A stretch of 63,305 nt of DNA, filler included, from Folioceros fuciformis (Eukaryota), in assembly GCA_049999805.1 (NCBI GenBank). It is 13 parts of 13 records of this genome, joined end to end, with 100 filler letters (N's around TTAATTAATTAA, not from the genome) between each part and the next. Parts side by side here need not be neighbours in the genome. Positions count along the whole stretch, not along the records: positions 27,752 to 42,620 come from JBNGIO010004703.1; 12 more parts are not named here. One strand, given 5' to 3'. Positions 5,812 to 62,222 of this stretch are shown piece by piece. Under the pieces are notes generated by a model. It had not been told where the DNA came from. It was given only the letters and a program-made list of their open reading frames with translations, and made no database searches. Each line of letters begins with the position of its first letter. Position 1 is the first letter of the stretch. The position numbers and the translations under genes were made by a program.

Positions 5812-5911
5812 NNNNNNNNNNNNNNNNNNNNNNNNNNNNNNNNNNNNNNNNNNNNTTAATTAATTAANNNNNNNNNNNNNNNNNNNNNNNNNNNNNNNNN
5901 NNNNNNNNNNN
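5812..5911. other. Artificial scaffold-joining linker N44-TTAATTAATTAA-N44 (stops in all six frames); first of twelve
   Basis: Identical linkers at 5812-5911, 14365-14464, 16506-16605, 18841-18940, 23835-23934, 25512-25611, 27652-27751, 42621-42720, 48050-48149, 50622-50721, 56692-56791, 61277-61376. Plain 100-N gaps at 19202, 20146, 23126, 29163, 32092 and 35534. Confidence 0.98.
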
Positions 5912-14364: not shown

Positions 14365-14464
14365 NNNNNNNNNNNNNNNNNNNNNNNNNNNNNNNNNNNN
14401 NNNNNNNNTTAATTAATTAANNNNNNNNNNNNNNNNNNNNNNNNNNNNNNNNNNNNNNNNNNNN

Positions 14465-16505: not shown

Positions 16506-16605
16506 NNNNNNNNNNNNNNNNNNNNNNNNNNNNNNNNNNNNNNNNNNNNTTAATTAATTAANNNNNNNNNNNNNNNNNNNNNNNNNNNNNNNNNNNNNNN
16601 NNNNN

Positions 16606-18840: not shown

Positions 18841-19156
18841 NNNNNNNNNNNNNNNNNNNNNNNNNNNNNNNNNNNNNNNNNNNNTTAATTAATTAANNNN
18901 NNNNNNNNNNNNNNNNNNNNNNNNNNNNNNNNNNNNNNNNCCTTAACCGACCGTAAACGCCGGGGCCGAGACATGGCACGTCCCCCGTTCCCCATCCCAG
19001 CCGGACCGCCGGTTATCGTAACCGCACGACTAGGCAAGCCGGGGCGGGACGGCACGGCACGACAGCGCGCTCCAGTTAAGTGAGCGCGAGAAGCCTGGCG
19101 ACTGGGACTCGTAGCATCCACGCGCGCGGCCCCAGCGCAGGCCCACAGGCAGTTAC

Positions 19157-23125: not shown

Positions 23126-23935
23126 NNNNNNNNNNNNNNNNNNNNNNNNNNNNNNNNNNNNNNNNNNNNNNNNNNNNNNNNNNNNNNNNNNNNNNNNNNN
23201 NNNNNNNNNNNNNNNNNNNNNNNNNAGAAGCCGGGTGCCCGTGGTGAGGTGAGCCGGCGTGGAATATCTCGCAGGGCCACGTGTCGAATCGAAAAGGCTG
23301 ACAGGGCGGACGTGGGTGGGGACTGTGGTGTGCGTCGGTGTGCTGGCCCACTCACTCCGCCAACGCGCCCCTTTTCATGGGCCATATTGCCCTAAATTTT
23401 TATTGTCCAGACCTGGTAAGGGCAAAGGGCAAAGGGCAATGGCAGGCAGGCAGGCAGGCAGGCAGGGCCGGGCGGATACGCGGAATTTGCCATCTCGGGT
23501 AGGCGTCCCGACCGCTTTATTTTTGGCTGACTGCATGAGGTGACAGTGAGGTCACGGGGACTGGACTGGACTGGACTCGACTCGACTCCACTCCACTCCA
23601 CTCGACTCCGCCTCCACTCGACTGCCCTTCTTCAGGTCGTGCTTCTCCCCCTTTTTTTTCTTCCCTCTCGTCTTTTCTTTGTGTGGTTGCTTCCTTCCTC
23701 CTTCCTGGCTTCCTTCCTGGTTTCCTTCCCGAATCCCCATGGCGGCATGGCCACAACTCCCCACACCCAACCCAACTCTAAACCCTTGGCAAGCCTTGCC
23801 TGCCCTTTTTTTAACCCCACCCCCCACCCCACCCNNNNNNNNNNNNNNNNNNNNNNNNNNNNNNNNNNNNNNNNNNNNTTAATTAATTAANNNNNNNNNN
23901 NNNNNNNNNNNNNNNNNNNNNNNNNNNNNNNNNNA

Positions 23936-25511: not shown

Positions 25512-26039
25512 NNNNNNNNNNNNNNNNNNNNNNNNNNNNNNNNNNNNNNNNNNNNTTAATTAATTAANNNNNNNNNNNNNNNNNNNNNNNNNNNNNNNNN
25601 NNNNNNNNNNNCTGTCTACATAGAGAACTGAGGTGAGAGATTACTTTCTCCTTGACATCTGTGAGTGAGATGGGAGCGATGATGTCTAGACATGTGGTAA
25701 ATTCCCTTTTCATTGTTGATGGAAGAGGTATTCTACCTGGATGTATGAGAAGTCATAATCATTATGTTCTAGGTGACCTCTGAGGAGTAGTTCTTCGCTA
25801 ATTAAAAAGTAGGACACCGCAGGTCCTAAACCAGCCATAATGACAAAGGTTTTCCTGTGCCTCTTTGAGGTATTGAATCTCTCTGTTGGACCTTTGCCAT
25901 TGAAGGTATTTGGCTTTTTTTTTCTGCCTTCTTTGCAAGGCGCCTTAGCCTCTGATCACCAGGCACTAGGTCGCAATTGGCGAGGCATTATGGTGTGGCT
26001 GGTATGGATGAGATCAATGACCAGAGGGAAGGGGTCCTA

Positions 26040-26933: not shown

Positions 26934-28512
26934 AGTGGAACAATGCACATGATATTGGAGCACCATGGACCACTGGATCAGTAACAATGTGGTTTAACTT
27001 CTTCCAAACATGGCATAAGGAAACCTTGTGGCCAAACTCCTTACACACCTAGCAAAAGGGAACGTGGTGGCTGAACTTCGTACACACTTAATAAAAGGTA
27101 ACATACGTTATCTACCTTTTTGGCTAAGGGCAGTTGGAGGCTTAGTGCCTTGGCATGTTGCTATTAAAACAACATCCTCTGGAATTAACATCAATTATTA
27201 GAACGAAGCAAACCTCCACTGCCCTACTAAGGTTGGTCGTACACTATGGAATTAATAAATTGGGACTATCTGAAGTCTCTCTCTGTGTACAGTCGGCCGA
27301 AGTTGTTACAATTATTGTATTATTAATTTTTAATGTTTGATTTGCTCTTTGATTTTAGATTGTGGAAGTGGCAAGGCCAAAGTCTATTGCGGTAGCCATT
27401 AACCAAGTCTTAGAGCTTGTGAAAGAAGCTAAACTGGTTATAGGTCTAAAAGGGAAGGATCATTATCGAAGAAAACTCTAGAGAGGACTTCGACTAGGGT
27501 GTGCATGACCAGAGGAGTTATGTCAGATTGACAACTAAGGCAACAACAAGCATAAGGAGGACACTTTTTTTTTCTCCTTCTTTTTCTTCTTCCTCCTCCC
27601 ACCAGCCCCTCCCTCTTCTTGTCTGTACACAGGTTGGCTGGTTCTTCATAGNNNNNNNNNNNNNNNNNNNNNNNNNNNNNNNNNNNNNNNNNNNNTTAAT
27701 TAATTAANNNNNNNNNNNNNNNNNNNNNNNNNNNNNNNNNNNNNNNNNNNNCCATCTGCAACGCACTGTGCTACCCACTTTGTAGTGAAAATTCCCATGG
27801 TCACTGCAGTCCACAGGGAGGGACAATCTGTAAGGTCAACTCCCTCTATTGGTCCATTTGCAAGTACGACACAATCTGCAAGGTCTACTTACAAGAGCAC
27901 CGCATCTTACCACACCGCCATTTGCAAGTTTCGCTATACCTGTGAAGGTCTAGGGTGCCTTCAACTACTACCTCGCCATCCTCAAATAACCCTTGCACCA
28001 GCTGCCGAGCAATCTAATGCCTCTACGGAGAAAGTGCAAACCAATACCCGTATACGCCCCATGAGGTGGAGGGTGAAGTGTGAAAGAATGACAGTGCATG
28101 CAGAAAGATTATGAATGATGAAGAAAGAAAGTAAAAACCCTTAGATCACTAAAAAGGTAGAAACCCTTAGATCACTGAAGTAATAATCATACAAGAAAAA
28201 AAGAACTTCATACCCTATGGCAGCTTGTGATGTGACGTGGAGCCCTAAAATCTGTATATATTTGAAAGATTTCATGGAATATTCGATTAAACATATGGAG
28301 ACATTTAATAAACTTACGTATCAAAAAATCTGTAGCTCGGACCTAATACAGGTAAACGTATGGAGAAATGTTTTTCTAGATCTATCTCGGGAGTGCGATT
28401 TTAGGGCTTGGGGCAACGTTCACCGGAGAAACAAGGGAGCAACTGCGCCATCGAGAGGAGTTCACGCGGACTTGCGGAAGCGGCAGGGGCAGGTGTGGGG
28501 TTGACTGAAGCT

Positions 28513-28887
28513 ATGGCAGCTATTAGCCTTCGGAGGGGAAACGCGCGGCTTCCCCCTGAAGTGAACAGAGTGTTGTATGTGAGGAATTTGCCTTTCAACA
28601 TATCTTCGGACGAGATGTACGATATCTTCGGCAAGTATGGAGCCATTCGACAGATTCGGATAGGCTGTAACAAGGATACCAGAGGCACGGCTTTCGTTGT
28701 GTACGAGGACATCTATGATGCCAAGAACGCAGTCGATCACTTGTCCGGCTTCAATGTTGCAAATAGGTATTTGATAGTTTTGTACTACCAGCAGGCGAAG
28801 ATGACGAAGAAGATCGACCAGAGGAAGAAGGAGGAAGAGATTACCAAGCTGCAGGAGAAATATGGAGTCTCAACGAAGGAAAAATGA
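28513..28887 (+). CDS. SF3B6: Splicing factor 3B subunit 6 (SF3b14/p14), RRM protein, 124 aa
   Basis: [51 protein letters not shown]...[36 protein letters not shown]. Confidence 0.97.
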
Positions 28888-29046
28888 GTTTCGGGCGCGT
28901 CAGGAAACTTCATTACTTTTGCAGTTTCTAGTCGAGGAGCTGCTCTTCGGTTCCGGAGTTGGCGGTTAATGATGCAAAGCTAGCCTTTTGAAACTGCCTT
29001 AGGCTTCCTTGAGGACATCACGTTGCAGACTCTTCTCAAATAGTGT

Positions 29047-29521
29047 CCAACAGTGGAATTGTAAATTGTAGGAAGGTTGAGGAAAGTGTGTGTCAAAAGC
29101 TCAAGCTCTGGTAGACAAGAACATGAGCCATCCAACATGCAAGTTTTCAACCCCTTCCAACANNNNNNNNNNNNNNNNNNNNNNNNNNNNNNNNNNNNNN
29201 NNNNNNNNNNNNNNNNNNNNNNNNNNNNNNNNNNNNNNNNNNNNNNNNNNNNNNNNNNNNNNCAAGAACATGAGCCATCCAACATGCAAGTTTTCAACCC
29301 CTTCCAACAGTGGAATTGTAATTTGTAGGAAGGTTGAGGAAAGTGTGTGTCAAAAGCTCAAGCTCTGATAGGCAAGAACATGAGCCATCCAACATGCAAG
29401 TTTTCAACCCCTTCCAACAGTGGAATTGTAATTTGTAGGAAGGTTGAGGAAAGTGTATGTCAAAAGCTCAAGCTCTGATAGGCAAGAACATGAGCCATCC
29501 AACACGCAAGTTTACAACCCC
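29047..29521. repeat. 110-bp tandem repeat (at least 3 copies, spans a gap)
   Basis: CTTCCAACAGTGGAATTG recurs at 29301 and 29411; another copy begins near 29047. Confidence 0.92.
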
Positions 29522-29635
29522 TAGCGTCACTCCCATGCAACTCTCGCTTTGAATTCAAGTGGGTGCCAATGACTCGGTAACCTGAACAGGACTTCCAATT
29601 ACTGGACACCTGAACACATTGGAAGTCCCTGGGCA

Positions 29636-30022
29636 TCACTTAATCAAGCCTTCTACTTTCTTCTCAACGTCAGCTTCATGGTCTTCCAGGCGGCCAACAA
29701 CCTGGCCTTCATGCCAGCGAATGAGCGTGGGTACGCCCTTGAGTCGAAATCGAGGATCTTGCCTCCAAGGATTGTTGGGGTTGCGCCATGAGAGCCGGTC
29801 GCCAACGTATGTCCGCACCAGGGTCATATCCTTGGGGCTCTGCTCCAGCACCTTGTAGATGACCGGCTCCGCCCGCACGCAATCAGGGCACCAGCTATGG
29901 CCGATTGAAGGATCCCTATCTCCCAGAAATAGCAGCAGCAGCGTACCAGGGCCTTGCACTTCGGCGACCGTCAACACCTGATCAAAATCATCCGCGCTCG
30001 CGTCCAGTATGGCTGCCGGCAT
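29636..30022 (-). CDS. TXNDC17: Thioredoxin-like protein Clot / TXNDC17 (TRP14)
   Basis: LLFLGDRDPSIGHSWCPDCVRAEPVI...YVGDRLSWRNPNNPWR...GVPTLIRW; WCPDC active site; start at 30022 or 30055. Confidence 0.93.
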   Translation of the reverse strand: MPAAILDASADDFDQVLTVAEVQGPGTLLLLFLGDRDPSIGHSWCPDCVRAEPVIYKVLEQSPKDMTLVRTYVGDRLSWRNPNNPWRQDPRFRLKGVPTLIRWHEGQVVGRLEDHEADVEKKVEGLIK

Positions 30023-30581
30023 CGCTCCTTCCCTGCAAGGCACCGGCCCTACCATTCACGAATTCGAGACGTAGGTGTAACGAGGACACGAAACTTGCTA
30101 TGACCTGAGCGTAGCTAACACCACATGCCAAGTGTCAGTTAACACCCGTTGCGCACATTCCGAAAGGGAACTCAGGGCCAAGAACTGAAGATGGAAAAGA
30201 AAATCGCCGAGGAACCCTGGAGCCCCAAGTCCTCACAACTGAACGCGATACAGAGGTAATATATTTACATACAAGATGGCTGCCAAATCTGAGAGCAGGC
30301 ACTACTTCCTGGTATGAACTGCTTGGTGAAGCGAGGCCTCGACCAGTCATCCTACTCTAGGAGAGTGCGGTCTGATAAGTTAGCCGATGACAATGCAAAC
30401 ACTGGCAACTGTACAGCACTACTCTCCACCACAACTAACCAGCACTGGCAGCAACCTGCAAATTGCATCCAGGTCAAATTCCTGCAAGGACGTTGTGGAC
30501 AGCAAGAATGCTCTCAGACCATGCTACTTCCACAAATCCGAGAAAGGTGTTAGTGGTCAAAAACGAAGGTGGGATGGTTGG

Positions 30582-30925
30582 TCAGCCCTCTACCACGCTG
30601 CTGCTACATCTCCAGAACATGGCTGCTCTTCGCTCTTCGAAAGAATACTCCTCATACTGCAGTGGAGTCGCATTCTCTACATCTACTACTGGGTCAGGAT
30701 GATTCGTCGGCGTTGCAGGAACCGGACTCTTCTTGGGCATGATCTTGCTAGAGCTGGTTCCCAAATTCGACCTATTTATACCATCTTCTGACGGCTGTGG
30801 ATTCAACCTGGCAGGACTTCCAATTACTGGGGAGAGTGGCTGCCGAACTGCCTGCACCACGAGTGGAGCACCTCCTTCTCTCTGAAGCACCTGTGAGCCA
30901 ACAATTTGTGGCGAACGAGATCCAC
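30582..30925 (-). CDS. MAP65: Predicted alternative terminal exon of MAP65 (MAP65-3/PLEIADE-type tail)
   Basis: Donor CAG|GTGGGT at 31207/31206 joins in frame (phase 1) to acceptor TTTTGTAG|GT at 30926/30925; the exon encodes VRQPLSPV and EEYSFEERRAAMF. Confidence 0.75.
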
Positions 30926-31171
30926 CTACAAAATTTTGAGCACCGTGCAAGGATCAAGAACTGACGGCGGCAGAAGAGCAAACGAGGAGCTTGGAGAGTT
31001 AGGAAGGGGACAAACAAGCAAGCAGACAGGCACTAAGTTCTACGAAGCTATGCTCTCGGCACCTGTACCTCAAGGTCAATCTCCTACAGTCATTCTGCAG
31101 CAACAGTGCTTGCGAAGCTGTGTACTATGCAAAGAAGATTATACCAGAGTTCTGGTCGAGGTCGAAGGAGG

Positions 31172-34152
31172 TTATCCTGCTTGAGGGGAAGTGGGGTCAG
31201 ACCCACCTGCTGATCCAAGTGAGACTGTGTCATCCTTGCAGAGCGCCACATAATTGACAGGAGCGGCTGGTCGAGGTCGATCCTTCTTGGTGTCTTTGCC
31301 ATTCACGGAGCCAAGTCGAGAAGGAGTTACCCCATTGACACGAGGTAATAACATATCTGGTGTCCCTGGTTGACCAATGGCTCCACTTAATGTGAGACGG
31401 CGGTTGGCAGGAGTTCCTGCGGTCGGAGTGCTTCCATTGGCCCGCAGCCCTCCACCTTTTTTCACACTGATAGCCTTCCCAGGACTAGGCCTAGACCCAA
31501 AATAAGTTTCTTGCTCGTTCATGAATTGCTCCTGAAGACGTTTTTGGTCCTGCAGGAGCCCGAAAGACCGGGTCAGCCAGTTGTCAACAGTAGCCCCCAT
31601 TCCATCCTGGCAGTAGAAACTGGTTCACATAATTACCCGGAGCCGTCTCTTTTCTTCCTCCTTCTCCTGGCGCAGAAAATTGTACTCGTCCAGCATAGAC
31701 AACAACGGCACCTGCAATGCACCCACATAAACTTGTCAACGACAGGAAAAGAACCACCAGTAAAAGAATAACTCCGTGGGTGTCAAGTCACGTACTCCAT
31801 CATACAGAAAAGGTGAGCCATGCTCATCCTCCCATGCTCTAGTTCTTGACGTCAGGGACTCCACCAAAGCTAAAAAACAAAGCCAGCCACGAGTAAAGAT
31901 AAGAGGACCACGGGAATAAAAAATCAGACAAGGACGGCAGGAGAACCTCTCCACGTACCAGGAAGCTTGATGAGTGTAGCACGAGCCCGCTCAGCCCGTT
32001 TAAGACTGATGTGTGCACCCTTGCTGGCGTTATACCGATTTTCATCCTGAGAGGGAAAAAAAAAAAAAAAAGTGGCAGGACACGGTTGAGTNNNNNNNNN
32101 NNNNNNNNNNNNNNNNNNNNNNNNNNNNNNNNNNNNNNNNNNNNNNNNNNNNNNNNNNNNNNNNNNNNNNNNNNNNNNNNNNNNNNNNNNNACACGGTTG
32201 AGTATAGCTTAAAAAAAGCGGGTCCTGAAGTTTTGCGCGAAAAAAACGAAGCCCACCTTGTTGTAGTCCTCTAGCCAGCTTTCTTCTTCACAAGCCAGCA
32301 GCCATTTCTCCATCTTGTCCATGATCTCCCTCCTGGCATATGCTTCCTCCTTTGCCTTTGCGATCTGCTCCTCTATACTTCCGAGAAGCTGGGCAGCGTC
32401 CACCATCCCTTCACAAGGCATGAACAGAACAGACGGCTCAGTAAGGACATGTTTCGAAGAGATGACTGAAAGTTAATGCACTGAGGACGCAAAGTTACCA
32501 GAGTCGATCAGGGCATTCGTCTTCTCAGGAGCTGTGCTGGAATCAGGTTCCATGTGTGCCCTTCTACAGATCTCTTCCAGCTCTGTCCGCTTCTTCAATA
32601 CTAGTTCCTTCATCTTGCTTGACTTCAACGTATCTAGCCTCTCAACCTCCACTTCCGCCTGACGAGAAGGGGCATGCCACCGAAAAAGAATCAGCCATAG
32701 AAAAATCCCCGAAGCGAACGGCCATACTCTGCAACAAGGCAGTTATAACGCAACTACAAGAGAGTCAAACCTGCTCAATGACATCCAACGAAAGAGCACC
32801 AGGAGCATGAATCTCGGACTCCGACGCAGCAATGTTGCATGTCACGTGCTGGAACATCTGTTGCTCTTCAGCAGGGGTGTCCATCAGGTTCCACAGCTCA
32901 ATCATTGCCGCGCCTAAATCTTGAAGCTGGAGAGTATGAGAAAGAGCGACATTAGAGGAGGAACATCATCGTCCCATGGCAAGGAGAGAAGCTGTCAGGA
33001 GCATGGAGTTCACCTTCTGCATACGTTGCTTCTTCTCATTTTGCAACTGATGGATAGCCCTGGCCAGTCTTTCAAGAGTCTCATTGCTGATACTTTTAGA
33101 TTGCCCACCTGCGGACTCGTCTAAGCTGGGGTGAATCTCCGTCACCGTGTGAAAGAAATCCATCCCAAGCACAGCGCATAGTTCGTGTATAGAGTTGATG
33201 TATTCCAGGACCTTATGCAGCCGATCACTCTGCGGAAGCGAGCAAACAGAGCTCAGGCGCAGACATGAGCGCTGAAACCAACAAGTAGACGTTCAACGGC
33301 GAGCGCGCACAAGGGAACCTGCTCCTCAACCTCACCTTCTCCTTCTGCAAAGCCTGCAGCTGGGCATGATACTCATCCAGCCTCCTGAGAGACAAGTCCG
33401 GATCACCATTGGGAAACAATCCAGAGTCCGCACCAGCGCCAGCTATCTCTCCAAGAATCTTTCGAATCTGTGCCTTGACATCCGCGAACTGCCGGTACCG
33501 CTCTTCACGCTTCTGCCGCAGTTCCTCCAATTGCGGCGAGATAGCAGCAAGCTGCTCCTTCAATGTGCCAGGCCGCTTCTCCGCCTACAATGCGGAAAAC
33601 AGCGAAGAAACGTGAGACCGCCGACCGAAGACTGCTGTCCGCCGTCGCGGGAACAGGAGAGTGCAATGCTGCACCACACAGCGTCACCTACGCTCCTCCT
33701 CCTCTCAAGAACCCGCCCGAACCAAGCAACGAGGCGCCTAGGAAGCACAGCAAACTCGGCGCCTAGTCAAAGGCGGGTGTGAGAAACGGCTCACCCTTGC
33801 AGCAGCTCCAGGCCGGTCCCCTAGCGAGGAGAAAAGCGCAGCCAACTCCGACTCCGCATCAGCGAGGGCCTGGTGCAGACGAGCCCGGGCGTGAGAGGCA
33901 TTGTCAACTTTCCTCCTGTACACCTCCAAGCATTCCTGCTCCAGCTGCAGGAGCATCTTGTCCCGCTCCGAGTCGTTCTCTCCTACTTCGTCCCAGATAA
34001 GCTGGACCAGGCGCACGCACACCACAGCGTTAGAAAGCGCAGAGCAGAGAGCAGCACAGGGGGCCGACTACAAGCCGCACCAAACTCGCGCAACGAACCT
34101 GCAACTCCCGCAGCAAAGAGCCGCACGTGGTGTCCACCTGCGGCTGCGCCAT
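31172..34152 (-). CDS. MAP65: Microtubule-associated protein MAP65 (Ase1/PRC1 family), 11 exons, short-tail form
   Basis: GT-AG exons with consistent phase: 34099-34152, 33795-34001, 33336-33584, 33014-33229, 32771-32926, 32499-32658, 32257-32408, 31959-32046, 31796-31869, 31637-31711, 31172-31549. Motifs [69 protein letters not shown]. Confidence 0.95.
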
Positions 34153-36300
34153 AGCTGGTGACATCGCACCAGAAACCAGCTGCTACGTTTTCCTTTCCTG
34201 CGAACCCGCAGCCAAGGCGCAGAGCAGCGGCGAGCCGGGCGTGGCAGGGGCAGAAGCAACACAGAGGAAGCCGACGGGGTTGGCGAAGAGAGAGGGACCG
34301 GAACCACCTCTCTGGCGGAAAAGAAGCGATTCAAAAAACAAGGCACAGAAAATGGAGGAAAGCAAGCGGACCGAGCAGAGAGGCAATGAGAGCCAAAGCG
34401 GCCTGCTCCTGAGCTCCGTCTGACACACAGCCAGCCCAGCGGGCGCAGGCCTCAAGGTGGCCGCAAGTCTAAGCTTCAAGCCTCCCTGTCTCCCTCCTCT
34501 ACCCTTCAGCCCTCTGCTCCAGCGCTCGTCTCTGGCTCTCCCTCTTTCGTCCTCTCCTCCCTCCCGGCAATGCAATCCCGCCTAGGTAGAAAACCCGCCT
34601 AGGAGACGAGAAGCAGTCATGAAGCCCGGCGATGGAGCATGGAAGAGCGGGAGGAGAGAAAGCAGGGCACTCATGGCGCTATCTTTCCAACAGCTCTACA
34701 ACGCAAAAGGAGTGGAGAGGGCGAAGTGTCCGCGCATAGGCCTGTCGCTAGTTGGGCGCGATCTGCGCCGGGGGTGGGGCCACGCTGGTGTTTTTCTTAA
34801 TCGCGATAACCAAATCGGTGATTGGACGCGTTGTTTGAACTCTAGCGACTATTTCCCGACTAAAAATGGGAGAAATTCAAACTGAAATGACGCTGCGTAG
34901 TGTGCACAACGGTCGGCGGGCAGGGCAGAGAACGGTCAGCAGAGCCAGCGTCGACTGCGGGCAGGTTACCCAGGGCGGCGCCCAAGATCCAGGCAATTAT
35001 GCAATGCGGATGGTGCATGCGTATGTACCCATGGGGGCACCCGACGCCAGCTAACAGGTAGGATGCTAAATGTAATTGCGGCCCCACCAGCTGTTGAAGC
35101 ACAAGCATATCTGCGGAACGAAGCTTTGCGGGGGCCCGCCATCGCTCCTTGCCATGTGACTTGTCCCAGGCCCTTGTCCAGACCCATGCTCTGAATCAAT
35201 CCATCTGCTCCCTCGTGCAGCCGGGCAAAACATTCCATCCCCTTTGTCACTATCTCTATAAATCTATAAACAAAGAAGAACCCACCGTGACATCTAAAAT
35301 GTCTTCTTGCGTTCTGTTTTTAGGTCTAATACTTTTTGAGATAACATCAAGTTAGAAGGGTTGAGTACATTTATGAGTTGGGAACTAGCTGCATCAATCT
35401 AAGCTTCTTCTTGCACGGTTGTTCCAATCTTTCGAGTTCTGAGGTTCTGCTATCGAAATCCATGTACACCTTCCTCCACGGATCAATTGGGGGGTTGCCA
35501 ATTATAGTGAGCATGAGAACCGAGTTTTCTTGGNNNNNNNNNNNNNNNNNNNNNNNNNNNNNNNNNNNNNNNNNNNNNNNNNNNNNNNNNNNNNNNNNNN
35601 NNNNNNNNNNNNNNNNNNNNNNNNNNNNNNNNNCCATTGTAGAACACTCTTTGCTTGTGAGGTGGAAAGTTTTGGAGAGCTTCTTGCTCGTTGTGGAGCT
35701 TCATCTTCATGAAATAAATAGGCTTCCCACTCTCCACCTCGACCACAAACTTCAAGCTTGAGAACCGCACAAAGATTTGCATTTTCGGATGCTACTCAGA
35801 AAAACTTAGCTCTTGTGCTTGTGATTATGTTGTCGTGTTCTAAGCTCGTTTATACTCAACCTAATGAAACCATATCAGCTTCAATTCTGGTTTTCTACTC
35901 TAGAAGCCATGTGACAACTAAGCTTCAAGTTGCATAAGACTTGTACTCACCTTCCTTACAAAGGAGCATGCGTTCCATAGAAGTCAAGGAATAGTGTCTA
36001 TCCTATATATGATAGGGGATTAAGCAGACCATATATAGCATGGTCCAAGAATAGTGTCCATCCTATATGTAGGAAATTAAGCAAAACATATATAGCATGG
36101 TCCAAGGAATGTATATAGCGTGTTCTTTCTTATCCAACTTATCCAATTTCAAAGGAACCCCAAACCCTAAACCTAGTTATAAGCGGTTCATGTACTAATT
36201 TGGGTTCTCATCCTTGATTCACTATGCACATACTTTACGTGCAATCTGTTGGTTTTCCGATGTGCCATTCAAGGCGTGATCTCGTGTGGGTACTTTGTTT

Positions 36301-36545
36301 ATGTGACCAAGGTGGGCTCCTATTCCATAGTGGCTTTGTTAATGTGACCAAGGTGGGCTCCTATTCCAGAGTGGCTTTGTTAATTCCAGAGTGGCTTTGT
36401 TAATTCCAGAGTGGCTTTGTTAATGTGACCAAGCTGGGCTCCTATTCCACAATGGCTTTGTTAACGTGACCAAGGTGGGCTCCTATTCCACAATGGCTTT
36501 GTTAACGTGACCAAGGTGGGCTCCTATTCCACAGTAGCTTTGTTA
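36301..36545. repeat. 41-bp tandem array (about 5 copies) with an internal roughly 20-bp sub-duplication; a further imperfect duplication of about 60 bp at 35985-36110
   Basis: Unit ATGTGACCAAGGTGGGCTCCTATTCCA(T/G/C)A(G/A)TGGCTTTGTTA; ATTCCAGAGTGGCTTTGTTA occurs three times in a row at about 36363-36422. Confidence 0.9.
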
Positions 36546-38082
36546 CCCAACTACGCTCCTATGACCAGCTATGGCTGCCCAGTGTTGTGACTCGTGGTTG
36601 GGGGTACTAGCTAGCTCCTCCACAAGTCATTCACATTTTAGCATTGTCATAGAGTTTGTTCTCCCTACTTCTTCTCTCATTGTTCTAGCTCTCATGTTAT
36701 GAGGCTATGTTCAATTATTCTCGTTTTCATAGACATTGTCATTTGCTGTGAAGTTGCTATCAATTTGCACTTGTCCCATTGCCTCCATACCAAACCTTGT
36801 CTTATCTTTCTACAAAATACCAGCAAAAGGGGAAGGACATAATGCACCGTTTTAATATGTTGTAAGTTAGGCCTCCCATGAATGACATGCACTTTTCTAG
36901 TGGTGGGTAGTCGTTATCTTAGCCCATCCTAGTAGGCTATGTATAGCACTCTCCAATTAATCGTTGGGAATTCTATCCACTACGACTAGGTGCAACTTGA
37001 TGCCTAGCAGCCATTGTAGCGAGACATGGCCACCATGGGTGCCTCTAAATACAAGACATTCTGTGTTTGGATGTCTTGTATTTAAAGGCACCATGAACGG
37101 TCAATCCTTTATTGAGTTCCAATTAAGCCCTTATCAACATCGAATAACTCCAAGCTCACTTGGCAATGCCTTTGTAGAGTGATGGAGACATGTTGTCGAA
37201 ATAGGATGTGACATAATGAAGATCCTCCTTAGTATAGGATGTCCCGATTGTTGCAGAGCTACATTCCTCCTTAAGCTAGGTTAGATTCATCATAGTCCAA
37301 GGATGTGCAAGTGAAGCTTCACCTTGTTTTTCTGCACTATCTTATGTCTCGTAGGAATGTGCATCTCAACTCGGAGAAGTTGTCTTCCAAGGTTGTTCAA
37401 ATTTTCTTTCTATATCTTGGAAAATTGATTGGTGCATGCATTGCAAATATTCGGGTACCAACCAAATGTCCCGATGGTCAATAATTACCTGCCTAGATAG
37501 CCGTTAGGGTACCTAGACTTAGGCGCAACCCAGCATAGACTTTGCACAAAGACCTTATCTATCTAGCTTGGGTCGAACTTAAAGAGCCAATTTGTGATGC
37601 GAGGGGCAGCAGTTGGTTATTTGGTCGCTTTTCTACACGCCATCTTCCGACCTGACCATCCCGAACGCCAACCAGGTCTGTGTCTGCAAAGGGACTTGCA
37701 AGATCATAATTGAAAGGGGGTATTATTTTTTCAGATAGTATCTGATATTCTGGTAAAAATCGCATACAGGTAGAGAGCGAAGGGTCAAGCTAAGGTGGAT
37801 GTAATGAAAAGAAATATCGCAAAATGAAATTGTAATGGGGTCCGTGGAGGACTAGTCACCTTGATTGCTTTCATCTGGGGGAGACGAGGGTCGAGGTTGG
37901 GCGTGTGGGAGTTTGTGCTGGGCATCCATGCGTGCGGGCATCGCTATGCCGTGCGACGAGCTCCGTCAGGCACTGGTCCCAGCAGTTATGCAGCTGAAAC
38001 CTTTACACTCAGGATCGATGTCCGAGGACTGTACGAAGGGGCATTGTGGGGTTGCTGTTTTGCTGCGGTAAGAGAGCTCACT

Positions 38083-40439
38083 ATGAACTCTCCAAAGCGA
38101 TCCAGGGTCGCTGAGGAGGATACTGGGAGCCTCGTAGCAAAGAAGGTGTCTACAGCTCGTTCCGTTCAGGAGGAGGGTCACCCACTAGTACGGCTGGTGG
38201 AACAGCGTCGCAGCGACGTGACTGAGCTGGTGGAACACATTGCCAGGCTGCGAGCGAAGGTAAAATTGGCGTATGAGGTTTTGCAGAGGGCAGGCATGGC
38301 CTTCCAGTTTTTTGTTTTTTCGGCAACTGAGTGGCACCTAGTTTTTCTCGAGTTCTAAGTTGCTTTCAATCAGTTGAATTGAATCGGACCGTTGTCTTTG
38401 CAGCTGGTGGTTGCCCGAAAGAAATCTCATGAGGCCAGCACTCTGCTGAAGCAACTGCAAGCTCAGGAAACGGATTGCTCAGGTGTTCCAGAAGAACCGG
38501 ACAGCTTCAGAATTTCAGAAGATGGCGGAAAGGACTTGCTTCAAGGGCGTCAGGGTAGTCTTCCCGTGGGGTCCTTGGCGTGTACTCTGCCCGAGCATCT
38601 GCCGCCCAGTATTGTTCTCAGTATTCCTGGAGGATCTTCCCGAACGAGTAGTGGGTCGGGACGGGGAACTGGAGATTTATTTGGTTTTGGGGATGGTGTA
38701 GCAGGTGGAGGTGTGTTGTCTGGGCAAGCTGATGCTGATACGGAGAGGACTTCGGGGCGGGCAAGCTTGTCGGGTAAAGCGCGTTGAGTGATTTGAAATG
38801 GCCGGAACAGTTTCTCCAGTCACCTATGCGGAGTCCGAATTTATGCCAGCTTACCCATATGGAGATTGCCACTATTTTCAGGGCATGAGTGTACATCTCC
38901 AGAAGAAAGGCTGCACAAGGAGCACGTTAACTTAACCTCTTGCGTCAAAACAAGTGACATGCCACTGCCCGTCTGTTTCAATCCCCCAGTTTATGTTCCT
39001 AGCCAACGAAAACGGAAGCTTAGGTGTCTGGAAGTGAACCCCGTTGCAGAAAACCAGTGTGCAACTACGTGCGTGCTACCTGGCATAGGCTATTTTTTGC
39101 TGAACGTGGTCCGTGCCTGCTAGGTGATGCTGTGACTAGACTAAGTTTGAACTGAATGCTGGACTTGCAGTGCTTTGGATGGCCAACTTTGTTTCTGGCG
39201 TATTGATGGCCCTGGGTAAGATGGTCCATAGCCCTCTTGATACTTTGTGTAACGGAAGCTATCAACAGTCTCGGTAGATTTTGCAAGAAATGTTCTTGAT
39301 CTCTCTTAATTTCAATGGTCCATTTCTAGGCATTCGTTCTCTCTGCAACACACAGTCGATTGTCTTTCTCCTAGCCAGAAGAGGTGGCCAGAAGATGTGG
39401 ATTGGCATCCGTCGGGGGAAAGCTTAGTTGCCTGCTACAGTGCAGACGCTGGGGACTCACAAGTTTCCATCATATCGAATACGGAGCGGGTGAGTGTCAT
39501 CTATTGAAGCATCCTAGGCTTGCTCTTTGACCCTCCATGCTAGTACCCATTACGAAGGAAGAGGTCAGCAGTGAGTGCCATACCAGCGTGTTGTGTTTCA
39601 GAGTTGGAGCTTGTGCGATACGTGTCTGCTTTTTCTTGCAGAGAACAGCCGTTTTCCTTCCGGACAAACCCCATGGCAAAGGCATAATCAATGGCATAGT
39701 ATACCTGCCCTGGAGTAATGGTCAAGATTTCGCAACAGGAGGTTGTGACCATGCAGTGGTTCTGTGGAAGAGAAGGGATGGGAAGGCTGATGGCTGGCAA
39801 CCAAAGGTTTTGCACAGGACTCTTCACACTTCGGCAGTGATGGGCATTGCAAGTTTGAGGCACAAAGAATGGATTCTTTCTTCTGGTGCAGACAAACGTG
39901 TCTTTGGGTACGACTTACAGGCTGCAAACGCACCCTTGAGCCAACTGCTGGAAACTAAGGTCATCAACGTGGTGCCCAATCCGGTGGATTTCAACATATA
40001 CCTGGCGCAAACAGGGTCAGTTGTTCGTCACACCGTGTTTGTTGTTCAGTCTTGTTTTCTGGAGGTAGTTTCGGAGCTTCAAAATGGTTACGTTTTTTCA
40101 TTTTCTTGAATCAGCAGAGCTCCGGGACTCCAGATAAAGCTTTTTGACATTCGATCTCCGGGGTCATACATTCATAATTACGGTTGGTATCAGGACAATG
40201 GTGAGAGCCAAACTGCACTCATCAGATCGTCGTGGTCTCCGGATGGCCTTTATACAGTCACAGGCTCTACTGATCCAAAGATTCATATATTTGACATTCG
40301 CTACATTCGCCCAGATCCTGTTAAAATCATCAAAGCCCATACCAAGCGAGTTTTCAAGGCTGTATGGCATCATACCCTACCATTAGTCGTCTCTATTTCA
40401 TCTGACTATCAGATTGGGTTGCATAGACTTTGGAACTGA
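38083..40439 (+). CDS. WD40-repeat protein with N-terminal coiled coil (resembles Arabidopsis At5g50970), 7 exons
   Basis: Exons 38083-38259, 38404-38773, 38882-39068, 39171-39215, 39330-39489, 39642-40015, 40118-40439. Motifs SQRKRKLRCL, KRWPEDVDWHPSG, KPHGKGIING, FATGGCDHAVVLW, HTSAVMGI, IKLFDIR, AHTKRVFKAVWH. Confidence 0.88.
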
Positions 40440-40663
40440 TGGTCATGTTAACTGAAGTCATTTTATTTCCCTGGTATCTATGACATTTGTCCAGAAAATA
40501 CCACTAGGGACACAACCATATTTTATGCCGCGGACAACATTACGTATACAACTCATCAAGGGAATACGGCTACAAAATTGCGAGTCACCTGCTACCACGT
40601 TCTTCTGCCAGGACGAGTATTCCTGTCAGATAACCCTTGCATCGTTTGCGGGGGTTGCAGATA

Positions 40664-42490
<1,827 letters not shown>

Positions 42491-43836
42491 CTGGAAGAGC
42501 AGAATCCAATCAATATGGTCACACTATGAGCCAGGCAGGCAATATACAACGAAATAAGTTCTCAAGGTGCAGGTCCTCTTGTGAGCATGAGGCGGCGGGG
42601 GGGGGGGTGGGGGGGTGTCGNNNNNNNNNNNNNNNNNNNNNNNNNNNNNNNNNNNNNNNNNNNNTTAATTAATTAANNNNNNNNNNNNNNNNNNNNNNNN
42701 NNNNNNNNNNNNNNNNNNNNCCACACAACTCTGCCCACGTCATCCCTCCCGCTTCACACATCAAAGGGACAAAGCCCAAGGGCAAGAACTCACACGAGGG
42801 ACCCCGAGAGCAAACCAAACAAACAGAGCAACAATCAGACACCGCCTTCCCTCCCCCTCCTCCTCCTCCTGACACACCCGGCCCCGGACAGCCAGACGCA
42901 AAAGCGCACCACACATGCTGTGGTTGTGAAACAAACATCGGTACATATGTACGTCGGGCGTGCACGGTGCACGGTGCAACGGCAAGGGGGTTTGTCCACA
43001 AACGGTGCCGCCGGTGTGGAGACTGCAATGTACAATTTCGCGGTGGTGCAGGCGCAGGTGAGGGTGCAGATTCCTCCACTCGCAGTGTGGCCCCGCACGG
43101 GGGGCGCCTATATCGCCTAACATGCATTATTAACCTGGCTATGGCGTCACTCCTACTTCGAGTGCCGCGCGGGCGGGGCCCCTCGGGCCCCCTCCCGCCA
43201 ATGGGCCCCCGGCACGACCTGCACAATCCGATCCTTCTCTAAATGAGGCTGCACCCATCACTCCACGAGGACCCTCGCCACACGCCCTCCTTTAGAGTTT
43301 TCCTCCTCTATATTCCGGCAATGAGTCGTCACCAAAAAACACATGTCCGCGATCCACTGCCTCATTCCACCTCCAGTACATACCTTCCTTCTCTTCTGTC
43401 TCCTTCCCGGACCTGGAAATAGAAACCAACCATGAATTATACATACATATAATATAAGCACAATTCCAACCATGAGCCTCCCTCAAACCCTAAACCCTTT
43501 TGGATTGTTCCACCCTAAACCCTTTTGGATTGTTCCGAATAATAAGTATGTGTAGCCTTTGGTTTCGGATATCACCTCTAAAACGGTATATGTCTAAATA
43601 AGATTTATAAAGTTTATGTTATTAGTATGATTATTTTATATGCCATATTCAGGATTTAAATGGGGCAGCTGCATCCCTCCTATAAAGTCCTTTGGGCCCA
43701 ACACTATCCTCTATACCCAGACAAAGGAGTTGTTGAATGAGATCTTCTCTTCAAGTCTTACTCCAAGACTTAACTTTGTAGACATATTGTGCTAATGGTT
43801 TTTGCATTTGTTACTTTAAATCTAGTAGCTCACACA

Positions 43837-47811: not shown

Positions 47812-48149
47812 GAATCACTTGATCGGGCTCCCCGGGAGGAATCTGCTTCCAGAACTCGGTGCAGTTCTTAGCGCCCCCCTTGGAGACACTCTCCAGGGAG
47901 GTCACTCGAGAGCAAAGCTCATCGCTGCATCGCCACACGGAGAGTTCAAACATGAGGTGGTCCAGCTGGGAGAAGTAGAGGTCGGTGGCTATGAAGCGTG
48001 CGAGGCGACAGACATCGCTGGTAACCTCTACCGTGACTCTGGGGTGGCCNNNNNNNNNNNNNNNNNNNNNNNNNNNNNNNNNNNNNNNNNNNNTTAATTA
48101 ATTAANNNNNNNNNNNNNNNNNNNNNNNNNNNNNNNNNNNNNNNNNNNN

Positions 48150-50621: not shown

Positions 50622-50721
50622 NNNNNNNNNNNNNNNNNNNNNNNNNNNNNNNNNNNNNNNNNNNNTTAATTAATTAANNNNNNNNNNNNNNNNNNNNNNN
50701 NNNNNNNNNNNNNNNNNNNNN

Positions 50722-56691: not shown

Positions 56692-56945
56692 NNNNNNNNN
56701 NNNNNNNNNNNNNNNNNNNNNNNNNNNNNNNNNNNTTAATTAATTAANNNNNNNNNNNNNNNNNNNNNNNNNNNNNNNNNNNNNNNNNNNNTTGTAAGGC
56801 TGATGCCATCTGCTTTACCAGTAACCCTCAGATATTTGGGTGTACCCCTTACGTCGGTGCTTCATGGTAGGATTTGAAGGAACTGACTTGATGCAGTATC
56901 CAAACCAAACCGTGGAGTTGATGAGTTAACTGGTCACATGGAAAA

Positions 56946-61276: not shown

Positions 61277-62222
61277 NNNNNNNNNNNNNNNNNNNNNNNN
61301 NNNNNNNNNNNNNNNNNNNNTTAATTAATTAANNNNNNNNNNNNNNNNNNNNNNNNNNNNNNNNNNNNNNNNNNNNTTGTGGCGGCTCGCCTACAGGCCT
61401 GGACAGATTGTCGACAGTTGAATCCTATCCAGGCCGAGCCAGACGCAAGAATTGTAAACAAATGGGGCGCACGGCAATCCAAGCCCAGGCCTACAGGCTA
61501 CAGCCTTTTTACAGGGCCTGCAGGGCTACAGGCGCAAGGGGATAGAGGGAAAGGGAAGCGGGGAGTGGCGGGCCCAGCCGCTGGACACTGCCGTGGCCTG
61601 CGGGCATGACTGGCCTCCTGCTCTGCCACCTCCAGCCTGTGCAGCTCGTGCCCATGTGATCCTCCCGCCCACCCGCGTGCCGGCCCGGGTCGGGCTGTCC
61701 CGCCCCATGGGATCACCTCACACCCGGCCCGGCTCGCTAACCCGGCCCGGTATCTCTCTATGTACAGTACAGCACAGTACTCTACATACTGTATGTATGT
61801 TTGTATGTATGTACACACACATTAGGGTTGGGAGACGCGCCAGAGGCCAGACCCGGGCTCGGGGCTCGGGCAGCCCGCGCTGCCCGAGCCCCGCCCGCGC
61901 CTGCCCCGGTCAAAGGCCGGGTCAAAGTACGACGCACGACTCGGCCGCGTGCGCTGCCCTCTGGCTCGTGCAGTCTGCCACCCAGCCCAGTCTTTATTAC
62001 CCAGCTCCCATGCTCTTGTCTTGAGACCTTGTCGCCGTGCCCATTCCTCTGCCCTCTCTACGACTCTACGTTACATCCCCTCTCTACGTATGTATCTACG
62101 GTCGGTGTACAGTATGCACTTTCTTCTTTTAATAGTAATACGTACTATTAAAACAAATTAAAATATAATATGTAAGAAAGACATAAGTGTGTTCTATGAA
62201 GAGAGAGAAAAAGAAACCCTAA

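Follow-up and report, generated by a model that had tools for sequence, protein, structure and literature searches.

MAP65 proteins are described as dimerising through a conserved N-terminal half and binding microtubules through a variable C-terminal half, the C-terminal-most MTB2 domain being their most divergent part (PMC9643714, citing Smertenko 2008 and Ho 2012); the same text counts nine MAP65 genes in Arabidopsis and places the action of MAP65-3 in cytokinesis. For moss, PMC5371999 reports that knock-down of three MAP65 genes abolishes phragmoplast bipolarity. A single bryophyte gene with two C-terminal forms is already known from public annotation: the Marchantia polymorpha locus MARPO_0064s0049 is annotated with a product of 602 aa (P0001; PTQ36365.1 / BBN18307.1) and one of 694 aa (P0284; PTQ36366.1 / BBN18306.1), which are identical for 594 residues and then either end in DPTSPQAG and a stop or continue as GNFSNGG...PLSPV...EYSFEERR.... 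Here we analyse a MAP65 gene of the bryophyte Folioceros fuciformis, contained in a 63,305-nt stretch of DNA (hereafter the window; 13 joined parts of assembly GCA_049999805.1, of which positions 27,752 to 42,620 come from JBNGIO010004703.1). The Folioceros locus resembles that of M. polymorpha in having two products, in their divergence just after ...SAGGS and in the presence of both ending types; M. polymorpha was compared by protein records, whereas for the splicing mechanism described below, with its distal donor, the evidence is limited to the window and its relatives.

The gene lies on the minus strand and is delimited here as 30300..34152, from an ATG at 34152-34150 through its 3' untranslated region (UTR), 30300 being the limit of the analysis and the 3' end lying unmapped. 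Three of its exon open reading frames (ORFs) match the Pfam profile PF03999, two of them above the cut-off of 26.9 bits (35.7 and 35.2 bits) and one below it (23.7 bits), which places the gene in the MAP65/Ase1/PRC1 family. A model of 12-13 GT-AG exons starting from the ATG at 34152 is collinear with liverwort MAP65, and tblastn with the Marchantia paleacea MAP65 protein P0005 recovers exons collinear over residues 5-692 of the query and detects the last, tail-encoding exon at E 1.4e-6. The window protein is 81% identical to Calypogeia MAP65 over 490 columns, and 98% of the last exon common to both isoforms aligns with M. polymorpha P0001, at 68% identity. The intron that follows the ...WLEDYNK exon contains a plain 100-N assembly gap (32092-32191) that leaves its length undefined and the two-donor region untouched; a second gap of the same kind lies at 35534-35633.

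The features of the 3' part of the gene, all of them minus-strand, are as follows. The exon at 31207..31549, the last that the two isoforms share, begins at the acceptor ctgcag/GAC, reads DQKRLQEQ..., carries a NYVA motif of the RP.AP.NY/FVA type (31273-31244) and ends with the first base of a Gly codon. By translation, it belongs to an ORF of 31624..31172, coding from 31549, which closes with TAA at 31174-31172. The proximal, upstream donor, CAG/GTGGGT, cuts at 31207/31206 (GT at 31205..31206) and, together with the acceptor TTTTGTAG/GT at 30926/30925 (AG at 30927-30926), defines an intron of 281 nt, whose removal leaves a split codon, G/GT, that preserves the frame into an ORF of 30953..30582 and adds 113 codons. 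The coding part of this tail exon (30582..30925) thus comprises 113 codons plus the shared Gly codon and ends with TGA at 30584-30582. The stop at 31172, the positions of this donor and acceptor, the 281-nt intron, the in-frame join and a tail of about 113 aa had all been given in a preliminary description of the window, and they hold in our translation and exon model. The distal, downstream donor, CTG/GTATAA (GT at 31143..31144), was not part of that description. It skips 219 nt and retains a 62-nt alternative exon extension (31145..31206), which encodes the rest of the Gly codon and ten residues up to the TAA and leaves 27 nt between the stop and the donor. The intron core removed in both isoforms spans 30926..31144; the acceptor is shared, and both joints end at 30925.

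The transcript evidence comes from public sequencing runs. The run search listed 20, of which 18 hold part of the stretch and only one, X1, holds more than half of its words (share 0.70); none of the 20 is recorded as RNA, and the kind of every run is a guess. Contigs of four runs, X1 to X4, were aligned to 30300-32091, X3 and X4 deriving from related organisms that we call C and D. These are contigs and not raw reads, so their depths are rough, and strand, tissue and a dependable ratio of forms are not obtainable from them. All four X1 records are free of mismatches against the window. Two of them, records 2 and 3, share their outer ends (30897 and 31232) and differ in their junctions: record 3 (55 nt, depth 48.2) uses the proximal donor, skips 281 nt with GT..AG borders and joins 31207 to 30925, which is the junction that the preliminary description had proposed to look for, and record 2 (117 nt, depth 138.1) skips 219 nt, again with GT..AG borders, and joins 31145 to 30925. 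The 219-nt skip is present in three of the four runs aligned (X1, X3 and X4), being bridged in X3 by record 5 (735 nt, depth 15.3), with 60 and 618 letters on either side, and carried in X4 by record 11 (depth 166.4). X4 record 12 (55 nt, depth 62.6) matches as far as 31199; its loose end looks like the beginning of the tail exon, and we take it for the long junction of organism D. No conclusion is drawn for 31260-32091, where X1 contigs give no cover.

The claim that one gene yields both endings is thereby borne out, the two junctions having been found side by side in X1 contigs, but by another route than the one first proposed. The preliminary description had taken retention versus splicing of the 281-nt intron as the switch; the short form arises instead from the second donor at 31145/31144, with the same acceptor. 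Because the 62-nt piece with its stop is joined directly to the shared acceptor, the switch is a choice between alternative 5' splice sites, two donors serving one acceptor with GT..AG at both introns, as seen in contigs of which the one with the long junction has short flanks. The interior of the intron is covered by a single 160-nt contig (X1 record 4, 30979-31138) at a depth of 3.66, against about 100 on the tail exon, a contrast that fits RNA and not DNA. In organism C, two different sequences are joined to 31143: record 5 of X3 matches the tail exon of the window, and record 6 has an additional C after 31160 and runs out in a loose, diverged version of the tail-exon start. This points to a second copy or allele of the gene, likewise spliced from the distal donor.

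We propose that two 5' splice sites of the terminal intron compete for a single 3' splice site. Choice of the upstream donor would remove 281 nt and fuse the common body to a 113-residue, Ser/Thr-Pro-rich tail with EYSFEERR, and choice of the downstream donor would remove 219 nt, keep the 62-nt extension, add ten residues and a stop, and convert the tail exon to 3' UTR. Both mRNAs would be translated into working cross-linkers differing only in an unstructured regulatory C-terminus, so that the ratio of long to short form would be a means of setting MAP65 behaviour, and vascular plants would later have divided the two endings between duplicate genes. We put the probability of this explanation, with both isoforms translated and later split between duplicates, at roughly 0.8. 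With 27 nt between its stop and the junction downstream, the short isoform stays below the 50-55 nt that junction-dependent decay usually requires.

The predicted short ending has close counterparts elsewhere. A search with the last common exon returned 75 proteins at E<=0.001. The best match, M. polymorpha P0001, is identical to the short end of the window in its last 11 residues (11/11), and the ends of P0002 and P0003 from the lycophyte Diphasiastrum complanatum are near-identical, keeping 8 or 9 of the 10 extension residues, one of them ending in ...QAD. Angiosperm proteins named MAP65-1 end in ...NYVAI.KED..S..S..[DE]P.P.SP, and MAP65-6 of Lupinus ends in ...NNYVAISKEDTLSYASLCGSDESPPLS. 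Aligned by eye, the short isoform has the C-terminus of the MAP65-1 type, namely RP.AP.NY/FVA followed by a short acidic S/T-P end and a stop. Comparison of these termini shows the predicted short end to be conserved in liverworts, lycophytes, ferns and seed plants. The likeness of the short end to MAP65-1 and MAP65-6 claimed in the preliminary description therefore stands as far as proteins so named at NCBI are concerned; the NYVA motif on which it leaned is common to both isoforms, and only the last ten residues differ. The splice site constrains no more than the first six nucleotides of the 62-nt piece, and since identity of the peptide holds between plants this far apart, the extension is probably translated. 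Differing letters within the 62-nt piece number 0/60 in organism C and 1/90 in organism D, and the tail exon and UTR of these organisms show 35-37 differences and 6 gaps over ~625 nt.

The long tail reads GSRSPQ...VRQPLSPV...PSEDG...VDVENATP...EEYSFEERRAAMFWRCSSSVVEG and terminates in ...EEYSFEERRAAMF... before its stop; its motifs, read from the translation, are RQPLSPV, PSEDG, VDVENATP and EEYSFEERR (the last at 30653-30627), and six S/T-P sites were counted by eye. M. paleacea P0005 (694 aa), Calypogeia P0006 (697 aa) and Riccia P0009 (698 aa) extend past ...SAG into homologous tails, joined at the same ...SAG/G... position, and the window tail shares with these three 25 invariant columns, including PLSPV, ED, VD.EN.TP and EYSFEE.R. 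By hand arithmetic, 113 open codons would be expected ~0.4% of the time at ~4.7% stop codons. Because so long an open frame is improbable and the tail aligns with liverwort tails, the predicted reading frame exceeds what chance would give.

The relation of this tail to proteins of vascular plants emerged from profiles. Searched alone against longer proteins, the window tail gave no match at E<=0.001 among 272 candidates, and a four-tail profile, with 8000 candidates scored, returned the three liverwort proteins of the profile and Diphasiastrum P0076 (E 0.018) and no angiosperm. An exhaustive profile search with four long forms yielded 2173 hits. Among P0077-P0129, 37 representatives were at least 450 aa long; 14 of these have an EYSFEE-like motif near the end, 7 a NYVA-like motif and none both, so that NYVA occurs in 0 of the 14 EYSFEE bearers. 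Those bearers that were looked up are named MAP65-3 (Eucalyptus, Cannabis), MAP65-9 or -3 (Amborella), MAP65-4 (Capsella) and MAP65-9-like (Impatiens), and the longer member of the Ilex cluster, P0250, is named MAP65-3-like. In a single pairwise comparison, the window tail and Eucalyptus MAP65-3 are collinear at R(Q/K)P(L/F)SP, EN.TP and EYSFEERRA (E 0.002 and 0.017). With hhalign, five bryophyte tails matched 12 tails of the MAP65-3 type at a probability of 97.3% (E 2.2e-11, 82 columns), in an alignment that runs from R.PLSP to the end, well beyond the EYSFEE motif. Of 20 column-shuffled controls, 19 returned a score, all <=13.7 and <=0.4% probability, and one had no parsed hit. The long isoform thus has the three motifs of a MAP65-3/4/9-type C-terminus in collinear order, in line with the match proposed at the outset, and differs from that type in keeping NYVA upstream, as the long forms of liverworts do. 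Taken together, these comparisons show the predicted long tail to be homologous to the tails of MAP65-3-type proteins of vascular plants and conserved across liverworts. The Chara braunii protein P0085 (747 aa) has RPVAPVNYVA followed by ~155 further residues in one annotated protein; hhalign of its tail against the bryophyte tail profile gave 0.1%, homology is unsupported, and no algal claim is made.

The two endings are distributed differently between bryophytes and vascular plants. NYVA and EYSFEE are combined in 3 of 249 collected proteins, all of liverworts (P0005, P0006 and P0009), and in P0284, P0285 and P0286, which were added to the collection later. Annotations of four liverwort species include the long form, and those of M. 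paleacea, Calypogeia and Riccia list no other. Both endings proved to be conserved, as the preliminary description supposed, the short one in M. polymorpha and Diphasiastrum and the long one in liverwort tails, M. polymorpha having both products annotated. In Diphasiastrum the two endings are divided among genes: 06G, 08G, 02G and 04G have the short one, which for 06G and 08G holds of every listed isoform extending to the C-terminus, and 03G and 05G combine a degenerate NYVA region with an EYSFEERR tail. The long-type proteins of this species are P0076, P0077 and P0227, which were compared with P0002, P0003, P0004 and P0007, short-type proteins with NYVA and a GSDPTSPQ end; in the short-type 02G and 04G the end is replaced by ...DENSLQF[AV]. 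Ferns have separate short-type and long-type proteins. Among the vascular-plant proteins collected, the two endings accordingly sit in different proteins, as had been claimed for angiosperms.

The ancestry of this arrangement was approached with a 33-row tree, in which the window stands beside 32 proteins picked for being full-length and for covering the taxa broadly; fragments and the many nearly identical MAP65-1 rows of angiosperms were left out, and the 508 columns were taken from the conserved body up to FGSRPSP, with tails excluded from influence. The window is sister to four liverwort rows (support 97/98), grouped with the liverworts and not nested among them. Its body is set apart from the angiosperm MAP65-3 clade. 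Deep support in this tree is weak (81/37 and 84/81), and long branches lead to the long-type clades, which come off close to the Chara root. Two constraints were put to approximately unbiased (AU) tests in IQ-TREE runs of our own under LG+F+G4, a simpler model than a mixture model. Forcing all vascular-plant MAP65 into one clade was 9.2 log-likelihood units worse (AU p 0.104), and forcing all vascular long-type proteins into one clade was 8.3 units worse (AU p 0.133). The tree therefore neither rejects nor favours either constraint, and it leaves the pre-duplication state undecided.

Each of the two endings of the bryophyte gene recurs in a different group of vascular-plant proteins, and the simplest account of this is that a common ancestor would have carried both endings in one gene. 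A fuller history would run as follows: the MAP65 of the land-plant ancestor made both types through two donors of its last intron, bryophytes retain this arrangement, and vascular-plant duplicates fixed either the short end, with loss of the tail exon (MAP65-1), or the long end, with decay of NYVA (MAP65-3/4/9). We advance it tentatively and rate it slightly below even odds. The strongest competitor holds that the two-tailed gene is not ancestral, the MAP65-3 type having arisen before bryophytes and vascular plants split; the bryophyte gene would then stand on the MAP65-1 side with a kept or regained tail exon, and the true MAP65-3 orthologue would have been lost. In its favour, the unconstrained tree places the vascular long-type clades nearer the Chara root than the bryophyte genes, and a single vascular clade costs 9.2 log-likelihood units. 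That constraint is nevertheless not rejected, the deep nodes concerned are weak and their long-type rows lie on long branches, and either history requires a common ancestor with both endings in one gene. We regard this competitor as unlikely, if still one to be reckoned with.

Another alternative accepts the two mRNAs and denies a function to one of the proteins. If the long, MAP65-3-like protein alone were functional, the distal-donor mRNA would be noise, or an unproductive variant that lowers expression. Its intron in the 3' UTR and the length of that UTR would suit such a role, as would the annotations of M. paleacea, Calypogeia and Riccia with their long form only. Yet the ten residues specific to the extension are identical in M. 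polymorpha and mostly kept in the lycophyte, their alignment with proteins of the MAP65-1 type falls on the conserved terminus of the latter, the distal junction is the deeper one in X1 and X4 contigs, and the short stop is just 27 nt from the junction. We consider this alternative distinctly improbable. The converse, in which the short MAP65-1-like protein alone is functional, the proximal junction is noise and the tail ORF a decaying relic, could appeal to the long junction being shallower, confined to short contigs and unseen in X3; it has to contend with 113 open codons, with the homology of the tail to liverwort and MAP65-3-type tails, with the annotation of the long form in four liverwort species, and with the indels in organisms C and D, where the sole indel in the coding part of the tail is of 3 nt (30871) and in frame, as against four indels of 1 nt in the 3' UTR, a pattern that fits preservation of the predicted reading frame. 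We think it very improbable. Equally so is the original proposal that the short form retains the whole 281-nt intron and the long form removes it: translation through a retained intron would likewise end at 31172 and yield an identical short protein, and one low-depth X1 contig does lie inside the intron, but continuous cover at an exon-like level was not found there, its depth of 3.66 compares with 48 and 138 on the junction contigs, and 31206-31145 is joined straight to 30925 in X1, X3 and X4 far above that level, so that whole-intron retention is at most a minor form, given that contigs can drop rare forms.

Several points weigh against the explanation by two donors and two translated isoforms. 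All of the transcript evidence consists of assembled contigs from runs whose kind is a guess as RNA. The flanks of X1 record 3, which carries the long junction, measure 25 and 30 letters and fall under the tool's bridging rule of 31 letters; its length is that expected of a k=31 bubble path, and the caveat about its flanks stands. The long junction was not seen among X3 contigs, and no contig of X2 was placed on 30300-32091. The 3' UTR of the short mRNA is long (27 + 341 nt plus the normal UTR). A long 3' UTR can itself trigger mRNA decay in plants, and the short mRNA may have a regulatory, poorly translated role. The comparison of organisms C and D is weakened by the way the runs were picked, through shared exact words, and the hhalign test is partly circular, as the 12 tails were chosen for their EYSFEE motif. 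Either isoform is, finally, a predicted protein, documented at the level of transcript and sequence only.

If both isoforms are made, they differ only past the microtubule-binding region, in ten residues with one S-P site versus 113 residues with six S/T-P sites and an EYSFEERR end. The most likely effect of the predicted difference would lie in how one and the same cross-linker is regulated, which partners it binds or where it localises, and a putative division between interphase and phragmoplast functions is plausible. Should the bryophyte isoforms indeed divide interphase bundling from work at the phragmoplast midzone, the MAP65 isotype split would have begun as a splicing switch. The differences among MAP65 proteins, of which MAP65-3 is the one specific to cytokinesis, are attributed to the variable C-terminus, and a two-donor bryophyte gene offers a concrete hypothesis for the origin of their division of labour. 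A transformable liverwort with the same two isoforms would allow each ending to be removed or tagged separately with the body untouched. For annotation, bryophyte MAP65 gene models with one form, short or long, would cover half of the locus. Our search of the literature on MAP65 alternative splicing and bryophyte MAP65, with subscription journals and supplements outside its scope, found no description of two isoforms, and a search on the YSFEE motif gave unrelated matches only. Nor did this search find in print the two-donor, one-acceptor mechanism, the correspondence between each ending and a MAP65 class of its own in angiosperms, or the evolutionary reading.

Some features of the surrounding sequence bear on how the locus is delimited. 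On the same strand, ~530 nt downstream of the MAP65 stop, lies a single-exon ORF of 139 codons (29636-30055) with a TXD17-like thioredoxin domain (PF06110, E 1.8e-34) and a WCPDC motif. X1 record 1 spans from the MAP65 tail exon to 825 nt past 30300 and reaches this gene, although contigs cannot prove a single transcript. The window also contains twelve identical spacers, each of 44 N, TTAATTAATTAA and 44 N, at 5812-5911, 14365-14464, 16506-16605, 18841-18940, 23835-23934, 25512-25611, 27652-27751, 42621-42720, 48050-48149, 50622-50721, 56692-56791 and 61277-61376. Their 12-mer, TTAATTAATTAA, places a stop codon in all six frames. They look like artificial contig linkers, and the stretch is therefore stitched, so that adjacency across spacers may not be real; 29263-32091 is free of them.

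Set against the proteins of vascular plants, each isoform resembles one class, with differences. MAP65-1-type proteins (named MAP65-1 or MAP65-1-like in Cornus, Nymphaea, Elaeis, Citrus and others, and MAP65-6 in Lupinus) are like the short isoform in having RP.AP.NY/FVA and, ~20 residues on, an end of the [DE]P.P.SP type, whereas they differ from the window gene in having no EYSFEE tail, none of the 37 long representatives carrying both motifs. Proteins of the MAP65-3/PLEIADE type (Eucalyptus, Cannabis, Ilex, MAP65-9/3 of Amborella and MAP65-4 of Capsella) share with the window the collinear motifs R(K/Q)P(L/F)SP, EN.TP and EYSFEE(R)R; unlike the long isoform, they are without NYVA and have an extra TP-rich insert between EN.TP and EYSFEE, and their genes are separate from those of the MAP65-1 type. 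C-terminal splice isoforms are also known for human PRC1. The partition of isoforms between duplicate genes is described by the 'function-sharing' model, or isoform subfunctionalisation. That duplication followed a two-tailed state is, for MAP65, only a hypothesis, on which the AU tests are undecided; the distribution of the endings is nonetheless like that of the model, with one two-ended gene in one lineage and two one-ended genes in another.

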